Assembly (NCBI GenBank): GCA_951406725.2
Contig: OX597834.1
Span: 4,464,001-4,528,000, forward strand
DNA: 64,000 nt
Direction: 5' to 3'
Origin: Octopus vulgaris
Lineage: Eukaryota
Position 1 is the stretch's first letter, and every line of letters starts with the position of its first letter. The position numbers were made by a program, and so were the translations under genes. The notes below the pieces were generated by a model, which was given only the letters and a program-made list of their open reading frames with translations, was not told where the DNA came from and made no database searches. Shown here piece by piece: positions 2,326-39,550 of this stretch.

Positions 2326-2649
2326 TTACGGTGATGTACTTGCATAGCAAGTGACTTGATCTGAGATCGTGTGCTGGAACAAACACAATTGCAGCGTGGA
2401 AGGTGTTTATAAGCCATTTAAAAACACACAAAAACCGTTAGATTTAATTTAATAAAATATTTTCGTCGCTTTGAGACCCCGACCTGTTCACTGACAAAGT
2501 TCTGTGTTGCATTTTGTCAGTGAACAGGTCGAGGTCTCAAAGCGGCGAAAATATTTTGCTAAATTAAATTTAAATGTTGAAGTGAATCTAACGGTTTTTG
2601 TGTGTTTTCAAATGGCTTATAAACCTTATAAACCTTCCACGCTGCAATT
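2326..2649 (-). mobile_element. Fold-back PLE-like insert with two opposed hammerhead-like motifs
   Basis: Inverted arms 2387-2498 / 2513-2649 plus a one-sided 60-bp tail; 12-bp TSD aatttgtagata (2314-2325 / 2650-2661); homologous to 21834-22177. Confidence 0.75.
2513..2563 (+). ncRNA. Type I hammerhead-like motif, G3-C8 variant, 3' arm of stem I mutated
   Basis: TTTGTCA-GTGAACA-G-GTCG..CGGC-GAAA-ATATTT-TGCTAAA. Confidence 0.55.
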
Positions 2650-14823: not shown

Positions 14824-15139
14824 TATACTAATAGCTAAGCATTAGGATATGCATATTTGCAAACAATTTATAAAATGGTACTGGACAATGAAGGAGCAAA
14901 TGTCCCATCGCCGTGACTCGAACCTTGTATCAATTCCTTGCCAGGTGACATTACCAAGTCCCGTCTTCAGTTTTTAAATTAGCAATGACACACGATTGCT
15001 TAATCTGCTAAAAATAGCAGCCACATCTTAAAGAATGAAAGACATTAAGCAATGAAGTCTTTGTCAGTCCCAGCTGTAATTTCAAGAATAACAACACAAC
15101 ATAAACAGCCGTTGTAAATAATATCGATATTTGTTCTAA

Positions 15140-15272
15140 AACAATTGCAGCCTGGAAGCCATTTAAGAAACACACAAAAACCGTTAGATTCACTTCAACA
15201 TTTAAATTTAATTTGCCAAAATGTTTTCCTCGCTTTGAGACACCGACCTGTTCACTGACAAAATTCCGTGCT
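15140..15272 (-). mobile_element. Single arm of the G3-C8 hammerhead family (motif 15212-15262)
   Basis: Minus strand TTTGTCA-GTGAACA-G-GTCG..CGAG-GAAA-ACATTT-TGGCAAA plus the shared downstream sequence. Confidence 0.7.
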
Positions 15273-15989
15273 GTTCTAAAATGATTTAAGATTTTATTCC
15301 CTGAAATGAAATATTCTTGGTAGATATTCAAACAGTCGTTAGAGCTATTTGTGTTTTACTTAGCTTCGATGGAGTCAGAAGCATGCCTGGTCTCATAGCT
15401 TATATTGATACAGGAGATTGAGATTAGCCAGTTGGATTTATGTGTTGGACCACAATTAATGGAAGCAATAAGATAAAACCGCTTAATATGATATGTAGGG
15501 GAAGTCCATGTTAGCCATTCAACAGAGGGGTTAGTTTTTATTTATATGTCGAGTAGATATTCAGGTATCACGACGTGTCTTCGATTATCTTCGATTAAAT
15601 ATACAGCTGTGAGAATAGCTACAAGGAGGATGTAACACAACTCGACCCCAAACACTGAATTTTGGCGCTCAGTTTGACTGTATTTATAGGCTGTGTTTAC
15701 AGAAAATTGTAGCTGGGCCACCGAACTACCACGTGAACATCAACCGTTCAGTGGATAAAATCTCGATTGCGCACATTTTCTAATTATGACTGAATTGCAG
15801 GTTGAATTTCGTATGTGACAAAACGCGGGATCGAATCCAGTGTTATAATATATTGTGTCCCATTCGACACTAGTTCACTCTCATTTTGTTGATTGTGTAA
15901 CCATTGGGATCTCGAATATACATTCCAGTTATATGTAGGGGTTTCAATTCCAAATTTAAATTGGACGACGTATATGCAGCATTTCTTTG

Positions 15990-21833: not shown

Positions 21834-22175
21834 AATTGCAGCGTGGAAGGTGTTTGTAAGCCATTTAAGAAACACACAAAAGCCGTTCGATTCACTTCAA
21901 CATTTAAGTTTAAATTTGTCAAAATATTTTCGTCGCTAAAATCCGCGACCTGTTCACTGACAAAAATCCATGCTGCATCAGAGAAAGTAACAGTGAACAG
22001 GTCGCGGTCTTATAGCGACGAAAATATTTTGACAAATTTAAACTTAAATGTTGAAGTGAATCGAACGGCTTTTGTGTGTTTCTTAAATGGCTTACAAACA
22101 CCTTCCACGCTGCAATTGTTTTCGTTTCAGCACACGATCTCAGATCAAATCACTTGCTATGCAAGTACATCTCCG

Positions 22176-22177
<2 letters not shown>
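21834..22177 (+). mobile_element. Fold-back PLE-like insert between TA-rich microsatellites
   Basis: Near-perfect inverted arms 21834-21959 / 21991-22117 plus 60-bp tail; homologous to 2326-2649. Confidence 0.8.
21915..21964 (-). ncRNA. Best-preserved G3-C8 type I hammerhead-like motif
   Basis: Minus strand TTTGTCA-GTGAACA-G-GTCGC GGATTTTA GCGAC-GAA-AATATT-T-TGACAAA: 7-bp stem I, 5-bp stem II, palindromic stem III. Confidence 0.7.
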
Positions 22178-22245
<68 letters not shown>

Positions 22246-37519: not shown

Positions 37520-39550
37520 AATAACTTCACGGTGTGTCTTACAAATCTTGTGGTATTTGTTAGATTTTAGAAAATACTTACCTAAGGCAACAATTACTTA
37601 GTAATCCCGGATGATATTCGTGATCCGAAGATTGGATTAGGCCACAAAACATTAAATATTTTATACTTTTTGTTCGGTCTGTGACTACTAATATAAATTG
37701 TGGAAGGGTCATTGCCCAAGGAGTTACGTTCTACCTAATATTTAGACTAATACTGTTTTCACTTCTAATTTTATTTAATGTGTCAATTTTCACTCTTAAT
37801 TAGTCTGACATGACCACCTCCCTCTATTGCGTGCTTACAATTTTATCTATTAAGGTAAGGCTTAGTTCTATTACTATTGTGGCTCTGTAGATTAATTAGA
37901 TTATTATTAAGCAAATATTTCCTTTTCTCTGTATAAGCAACCCTGGCCAATGCTGCACTGCAATAGTGTCCATGTGTGTTATTTAACTTCTTTCCTTAGC
38001 CAAAAGTTTGGGTATTCGATTAGATATGTTTCTTACAAGTCCGTTCATAATAGAGGGTGGGTGATTAGATTTTACATTTATATATCTCAGGTTTTCGTTT
38101 GGCTTATGGTGTAGTTCGAATGATCTTGCATCCAAATTAAATGTTAGATCGAGAAAATTTACTTCACGGTAATTATTTTCTGTATTAACGGATTGTCCAA
38201 AATTTTTGAAGAATTTAAATAGTCGTTTCTTGTATCTCTCCATTTCTACCTTATTAAACCTATAAGTTATGAAGAATGTGTCGACCCTATACAGGTTATT
38301 CCCCATCCGTGAAAACCAGGACCAGATCTGGAATAGGATATATATTCTGACAAGCTCAGTGACTTTCGCTGAGTCACTAGATCCCATTGTAATATCGAAA
38401 GAGTCTATTCTATCTGATCTCGTCCCTAGTTTATTATCAAAATCTATCAGAATACCATGTGCAGCTAGTATAATATCTAACTCTGACCTAGAAAAATCAG
38501 AATTGCGCATGGCAAAAATTAAAGCCTTGTTCAGAAGAACCAGACTAACAGTAGAATAATAATTTGATATGTCGAGTTGTGTAAATTTGCTACTTTTAAT
38601 CCAATTCAGTCTTTTGAACCATCCAACAGACCATAGAGAGTGTTTAATCTTCGATCTAAAATTTGGAAGTATTCTGTCAATAATACTTTTACTAATCCTA
38701 CCAATATCCAATTTAGAGGGGCACACTTGTCTATCTGTAGGGTTATTATCAAAGTTAGTATTATACAAAGTTTAGTTAATTCTAGCTTTTTTTGAGGGGG
38801 CATATGGCTCAGTTCTATCTTCTATTCCGTGTTGTGTAAATATTTCAAAGCTCTTATTTACACCAGTTAATGCATCTCTAGTTCTTTCATGATTAGTAAA
38901 AAATAGTGTTATTTTAACAATGTATGACTTACCAGTTTTATCCGCCGGTACTAATATGCCTAAGGCGTCGAGCTGGCAGAATCGTTAGCACGCCAGGAGA
39001 AATGCTTAGCGGTATTTCGTCTGTCGCTGCGTTCTGAGTTCAAATTCCGCTGAGGTCGACTTTGCCTTTCATCCTTTCGGGGTCGATTAAATAAGTACCA
39101 GTTACGCACTGAGGTTGATATAATCAACTTAATCCGTTTGTCTGTCCTTGTTTGTCCTGTCTGTGTTTAGCCCCTTGTGGGTAGGAAAGAAATAGGTATT
39201 TCGTCTGCCGCTACGTTCTGAGTTCAAATTCCGTGGAGGTCGACTTTGCCTTTCATCCTTTCGGGGTCGATTAAATAAGTTCCAATCGACTTAACCCATT
39301 TGTCTGTCCTTGTTTGTCCCCTCTGTGTTTAGCTCCTTGTGGGTAGTAAAGAAATAGGTACTAATATGCCTGATGCTCTTTGGAATTCCTCCAGTGGTTT
39401 TCTCAATTTTTACTGGCGTTGTTGTCTTCTTTTTGTTGGTAGTTGATGTCTTCTTGGATTTTATAATTTTTATGATTTTATACAATTCCTCCTTAAAAGT
39501 TCTAGGCGTTGATATGTTGGTAGGATTTTCAGGTAGTTAAATTGTCTCTT
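37520..39550 (-). mobile_element. Decayed Penelope-like retroelement RT, interrupted by a SINE
   Basis: LVPADKTG, DIGRISKSIID, QLDISNYYS, FDITMGSSDSAKVTELV, LYRVD (decayed YRDD), VNFLDLTFNL, KPNENLRYINVKSNHPPSI; outer limits approximate. Confidence 0.85.
38962..39356 (+). mobile_element. SINE family C dimer
   Basis: 15-bp TSD ggtactaatatgcct (38947-38961 / 39357-39371) flanks the whole dimer. Confidence 0.92.

Follow-up and report, generated by a model that had tools for sequence, protein, structure and literature searches.

The hammerhead core contains a tertiary pair between positions 3 and 8 that belongs to the active site of the ribozyme. Search patterns for hammerheads take G8 as invariant, and the G8C exchange is a standard 'dead' control. 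On the minus strand of the window (the whole stretch of 64,000 nucleotides of Octopus vulgaris DNA analyzed here), a hammerhead-like motif is found with G at position 3 and C at position 8. This raises the question whether the motif is a natural hammerhead with a swapped core pair that searches for CUGANGA overlook, as an earlier note on this DNA had claimed, and whether such a ribozyme could still cut its RNA.

The motif and its predicted fold

The motif occupies positions 21915..21964 (-) and is laid out as a minimal type I hammerhead with a G3-C8 core. Stem I comprises 7 bp (21958-21964 with 21915-21921) and encloses the core GUGAACA, with G3 at 21957 and C8 at 21952. The core is followed by an extra G, a 5-bp stem II (GUCGC/GCGAC), GAA, the palindrome AAUAUU and U17 at 21922; from hammerhead numbering, a cut is predicted between 21922 and 21921. 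The fold that had been described for this site, from stem I to the palindrome, is thus present. The motif shows the features of the minimal type I class, namely stems I and II flanking the core, the extra nucleotide, G10.1-C11.1, a palindromic stem III and an N-U-H site. It departs from the literal CUGANGA core, and GUGAACA is found in 6,842 exact matches. Watson-Crick pairing at 3-8 is found as G-C in the family to which the window copies belong and as C-G or U-A in five relatives, with ~2% of copies carrying G3·G8.

As a 50-mer, the motif reached a folding energy of -14.7 kcal/mol (z = -3.4) and was more stable than 199 of 200 shuffled sequences. In the minimum-energy fold of the monomer, G3 is paired to U17 and stem III is absent; the probability of the G3-U17 pair in the monomer ensemble is 0.67. 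This mispair is the mirror image of the C3-G17 pair in an inactive hammerhead fold (PMC3884650). The AAUAUU duplex by itself amounts to -0.2 kcal/mol. When two strands were folded together, the best structure differed from the active dimer. Rfam returned no match at gathering score for the whole window, with just long-hairpin miRNA models below threshold, and no hammerhead family around the motif at E<=10.

The host retrotransposon and its copies

The motif is part of the pseudo-LTR (pLTR) of a high-copy Penelope-like retrotransposon (PLE). A 19-mer covering the core accounts for the exact matches noted above in the 2.8-Gb genome, with 0 matches for the reversed control, and a 23-mer from further downstream in the element had 7,892. 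Upstream of the motif, longer copies contain ~1 kb of microsatellite-rich sequence and then a frame with reverse transcriptase (RT), CX3CxxC linker and GIY-YIG endonuclease. At locus L149 this frame is open over 1025 aa, and its GIY-YIG domain scored 25.4 bits in Pfam against a cut-off of 22.6. The RT motifs of L149 are visible, with Pfam RVT_1 found below cut-off and in homologues only; Pfam searches on six short fragments gave nothing at useful E. In L353 the motif is followed by 92 nt and then by the ATG of the RT-endonuclease frame, in tandem arrangement. Tandem pLTRs overlapping the frame start were found in L353 and L351, and in a sister family in L171 and L169. The copies are 5'-truncated, often have an inverted truncated partner and mostly lie beside (TA)n; among 89 arms, the 3' end was long in 44, short in 31 and of another kind in 14. 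Endonuclease-bearing PLEs are marked by 5' truncation, an inverted 5' copy, a tail and (TA)n targets (PMC8557442), and PLE pLTRs carry minimal hammerheads (PMC4209133). The Neptune/Nematis-type CX2-5CxxC linker before GIY-YIG, a criterion taken from PMC8557442, was found in L149. It is this linker that points to membership of the element in the Neptune/Nematis group, our tree having been built without a named Neptune or Nematis element.

Within the window, the 12-mer GTGAACAGGTCG occurs exactly five times, at the positions where the earlier note had placed five arms with an invariant core. All five arms do carry it, but the stems are intact solely in the arm with G3 at 21957 (-). The 21993 (+) arm has just 2 nt left of the 5' strand of stem I, the 2491 (-) arm has lost the 3' strand of stem I, stem I is damaged in the 2520 (+) arm, and the 15255 (-) arm combines a G10.1/G11.1 mismatch with a broken palindrome. 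The fold z of these four damaged arms ranged from -0.16 to +1.27.

The intact motif lies in a 5'-truncated pLTR arm at 21834..21994 (-), which has a short 3' end adjoining (TA)n and a putative transcription start at ~21980. An inverted second arm, in which the hammerhead is broken by loss of the stem I 5' strand, extends over 21991..22178 (+) and ends in a long 'tail' followed by (TA)n. The two arms are joined over a 4-nt microhomology (21991-21994). The 'tail' (22087..22176, +) corresponds to the first 30 codons of the RT-endonuclease frame, 28 of the 30 residues matching the N-terminus in L351 and L353. Another inverted pair from this family lies at 2326..2649 (no single strand), with cores at 2491 (-) and 2520 (+) and both motifs damaged, and a third copy, single and truncated, lies at 15138..15273 (-) with its core at 15255 and its motif damaged. 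A read-through RNA across the inverted repeat would form a single extended hairpin with a folding energy of about -213 to -216 kcal/mol. Because of this predicted hairpin, the copy at 21915-21964 is unlikely to be a working one; the window holds truncated, inverted insertions only. Note that a decayed frame of 262 aa at window 37983-38771 (-) resembles, by eye, another Penelope-type RT/endonuclease and has no Pfam match. Canonical C3-G8 hammerhead-like motifs are also seen in unrelated repeats, in the window at ~51225 (-) and in L007, L039, L094, L097 and L103.

Conservation among copies was assessed on the 89 arms, which come from 82 loci on one chromosome and were picked with an anchor lying 3' to the motif, so that starts beyond +51 are invisible. 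Non-CpG mismatches amounted to 10/724 in the core and 77/3983 in the flanks (p=0.37). The core is thus not more conserved than the flanks among genomic copies, an outcome that had been named beforehand as evidence against the hammerhead. The comparison is not valid as a refutation, because neutral decay is what one expects of copies once they have inserted. By the same token, the invariance of GTGAACAGGTCG over five arms, correct as an observation, carries no weight as an argument for selection, because in young copies the core varies no less than the flanks and the same invariance results. The loops of stem II do differ, as had been noticed, with the two main types representing differences between subfamilies. 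In the commonest young loop type, C8 is present in 73/76 full motifs, a count from fetched loci and hence from a biased sample. Seven of the 89 arms (L105, L108, L248, L250, L251, L254 and L275, all on G000:C1) share a start inside the core together with 15 upstream letters; they derive from an inverted pair that was itself copied on in one piece and thereby became a secondary fold-back element, in which one motif is broken.

Among 21 copies of the 19-mer changed at both positions, C3-G8 was absent. Position 8 alone is changed in 405 copies, and the first 100 of these listed include 39 with G3·G8, an excess over the 21 C>G among 165 background changes (p=1.6e-6). Among the G3·G8 copies are the two arms of one inverted pair as well as the frame-linked copies L154, L162 and L358; no common diagnostic letter was seen in those inspected. 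Since they are in excess, occur in both arms of one pair and are linked to frames, unpaired G3·G8 masters, at ~2% of the family, have probably moved too. Four assembled runs under three organism labels showed no alternative letter at a frequency of at least 5% in the core or GAAA, in contigs that hide RNA ends. Element sequence was present in 21 runs, all contigs, of which 15 were guessed to be RNA; these were not counted as evidence of expression.

The 5' ends of the copies bear on transcription and cutting. The entire motif is held by 61 of the 89 arms; 86 begin upstream of the predicted cut and 1 at its first base, and there is thus no footprint of cut templates. In 42/89 arms the 5' end falls into a cluster 20-27 nt ahead of G3. 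Moreover, 13 of 21 AGATG junctions show an extra G that is absent from the element (p ~1e-5 against 18% G, with two junctions perhaps from one duplicated locus). The cluster and the non-element G, as expected when a cap is reverse-transcribed, suggest that capped transcripts start at -23 (window 21980) and are copied uncut. A splice acceptor could also account for the cluster, given a branch-point-like motif, a pyrimidine tract and an AG ending at -22; however, the sequences upstream of the junctions have no exon in common, and we rank this explanation below the capped start.

The 3-8 pair across lineages and the rival readings

A loose genome-wide pattern for other G3-C8 families gave no excess (1,775 matches against 2,062 in the reversed control) and led only to an older subfamily of the element. 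For judging core conservation, 186 matches selected on the core itself were set aside, and the subfamily was sampled with an anchor outside the motif: 30 of 75 matches were fetched and 17 could be aligned, 13 truncated or unalignable ones being dropped; two of the kept rows, L310 and L327, look misaligned. Despite CpG decay, G3 is found in 12/17 and C8 in 13/17 of these copies, and G8 in 0/17. The subfamily differs from the young copies at N7 (C), in loop II and in the length of the palindrome (AAUU), and has G-C in place of U-A at the stem I pair 2.6/1.6.

A sister family in the same genome has 54% identity over 814 aa and grouped with the window family in a quick tree (SH-aLRT 100). At the homologous place before the start codon it carries a motif with C3-G8, the extra G and U17, with A-U for G-C in stem II and G-C for A-U in stem III. 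It departs from the class in having C9 for A9, a bulged stem I and a non-palindromic stem III; owing to C9 and the bulge, the motif was missed by the strict descriptor and was located by eye. The sister family is young and has an intact frame of 1312 aa; its motif lies in L171 at minus 1985-1930 (G000:C1:59391000-59400900), and C9 was present in 22/22 matches seen.

Among 11 metagenome relatives, 4 have the motif, at a distance of 100-150 nt past the matched frame; no motif was found behind the frame in the other 7, of which 3 are short fragments without the frame 3' end. The pair is C3-G8 in L339 and L340 and U3-A8 in L341 and L342, together with C9 in L341. All four have the extra G and a perfect palindrome, and 3/4 have U17. 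L339 (position 4973) shows a U15.1-A16.1 inversion inside a perfect palindrome. Compensatory changes in the stems, the covariation that had been proposed as a check, are thus found between lineages (older subfamily, sister family and metagenome relatives).

Taken together, six lineages show three Watson-Crick states at 3-8 and zero mismatches, which 12 of 720 permutations also achieve; the lineages are related and this is not a clean p value. The pLTR position and the Watson-Crick covariation at 3-8 support the view of a natural swapped-pair variant overlooked by CUGANGA searches. Most simply, G3-C8 would be the derived state of the lineage of the window family. The core may be relaxed in the clade, because C9 occurs in the sister family and L341 and stem III is non-palindromic in the sister family.

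We favor, as fairly probable from sequence comparison, the reading that the motif is a PLE hammerhead of the minimal type I class in which G3-C8 occurs naturally, a weak cutter that would act in dimeric form or assisted by the protein of the element. Weak cutting is proposed because 1/89 arms starts at the cut, G3·G8 is in excess and G3 mispairs with U17. Descent from hammerheads is nearly certain; measurable, pair-dependent cleavage is a good deal less so but still probable; and cleavage is likely to be dispensable for individual jumps. A more specific version, in which a working G3-C8 hammerhead was retained through many subfamilies as a tuned, slow switch at the mRNA 5' end that would take the cap off a share of the transcripts ahead of the frame, is tentative and rather doubtful.

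In the proposed mechanism, an internal promoter ~23 nt before G3 would start transcripts, yielding capped RNA whose 5' end carries the motif. Stem III would form by pairing of two RNAs through AAUAUU, or with assistance of the element's protein, and G3-C8 would preserve the tertiary pair responsible for positioning the 2'-OH of nucleotide 8. The cut after U17 would be slow. Most RNA would be reverse-transcribed uncut in a target-primed reaction that begins inside the frame, and new copies would retain the whole motif. Selection would act on a few master copies and not on inserted fragments such as those in the window. For the Octopus element, we infer every step past transcription.

The main competitor holds that the motif descends from hammerheads but has lost the ability to cut, its fold being retained because it serves as a signal, structural or for protein binding, or as promoter sequence, with G3-C8 fixed by drift. 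Nearly all templates were uncut, G3·G8 copies are in excess and A9 is missing in two relatives, all of which would fit. Moreover, ribozyme-dead mutants of an Anolis PLE insert in vitro, with no RNA-seq reads ending at the cut (PMC11167929), and Naiad PLEs do well although they lack canonical hammerheads (PMC8557442). Three Watson-Crick states at 3-8 in six lineages are, however, hard to obtain unless the pair is selected, and G3-C8 was retained over the old and several young subfamilies although N7 changed; the prevalence of C8 in the commonest young loop type, from biased loci, also speaks against drift. We consider the loss of cutting unlikely, if worth serious weight.

Much less probable still is a non-autonomous retrozyme replicating via circular RNA made by the hammerhead. 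Animal non-LTR retrozymes are proposed to originate from PLE pLTRs (bioRxiv 10.64898/2026.07.22.740005), and locus L002 (G000:C28:5211072-5213587) contains 16 cores and a head-to-tail array of 167-177-bp pLTR units, laid out like these retrozymes. However, the L002 units contain (TA)n and have the look of a single insertion that was amplified in place. L002 was the sole array of this kind among 77 matches, and tandem units are absent from the window and from most copies. The dispersed copies start close to -23 and stop at one or the other PLE 3' end; the cut is not where they terminate. The near-perfect inverted repeats of the window copies and the lack of an Rfam hammerhead might suggest a MITE-like palindrome or a chance fold unrelated to hammerheads. 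This is barely credible, as arm lengths vary between copies, the arms continue into the PLE frame, and related PLEs have canonical cores in the same position and layout. For the family as a whole, such a fold is ruled out by the PLE frame, the tandem L353 and the motif in related PLEs.

Relation to known hammerheads and Penelope-like elements

If the favored reading of a weakly cutting G3-C8 hammerhead is true, a natural family in thousands of copies would mean that pattern searches miss a hammerhead class. One retroelement clade would provide an evolutionary series at the core (C-G, U-A and G-C; A9 or C9). It would also be a test case for the role of PLE hammerheads, with templates mostly uncut, unpaired variants apparently mobile and the pair nevertheless kept long-term. 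The gain is moderate, because PLE minimal hammerheads, natural U3-A8 and the laboratory rescue by C3G/G8C are already in print. A full-text literature search, with incomplete coverage of hammerhead-variant papers and supplements, found no natural G3-C8. None is present among the 56 motifs of Fig. S3 in PMC4209133, or in the accessible parts of PMC6765202, PMC6155905 and bioRxiv 10.64898/2026.07.22.740005, and the accessible part of a 2026 octopus repeat annotation does not mention ribozymes.

The closest published counterparts are the minimal type I hammerheads of metazoan PLEs (Cervera and de la Pena 2014, PMC4209133). They share with the present motif the place in the pLTR, the extra nucleotide between 9 and 10.1, G10.1-C11.1, a short palindromic stem III, the occurrence in inverted pairs and many solitary copies. 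They differ in that 56/56 motifs of Fig. S3 start with CUGA or UUGA, whereas the window family has GUGA and G3-C8, and in that the extra nucleotide is H in the published consensus and G here. The PLE hammerheads of that study include U3-A8 as a natural covariant at 3-8 (PMC4209133). Natural core variants with a compensatory 3-8 change, as here, were also described by Perreault et al. 2011 (PMC3088659), but as U3-A8 only in the part of that paper available. Like the present element, endonuclease-bearing PLEs of the Neptune/Nematis type have an RT, a CX2-5CxxC linker, a C-terminal GIY-YIG domain, (TA)n, a tail and an inverted 5'-truncated copy (PMC8557442); the likeness to this clade is by domain layout, and the accessible part of that account does not mention a core variant.

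The swap itself has been engineered. In the hammerhead of an Anolis PLE, C3G/G8C partly restored cleavage (PMC11167929), cleavage was likewise partly rescued in PMC8495972, and an engineered G3-C8 is also described in PMC3884650. The PLE hammerhead that is partly rescued by C3G/G8C requires its protein (PMC11167929; PMC8495972). The Anolis PLE shows in vitro each feature of the mechanism proposed here, including insertion without cleavage (PMC11167929). Like the Octopus element, the Anolis element (PAc) has its hammerhead beside the frame start and an optional 3' tail from an internal RT start within the frame, and its main template is uncut RNA, as demonstrated there and deduced here (PMC11167929). 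The start codon lies inside the ribozyme in Anolis PAc but 56 nt past the predicted cut here. Finally, the G3-C8 swap is a laboratory mutant in Anolis PAc (PMC11167929), whereas in Octopus thousands of copies carry it naturally.
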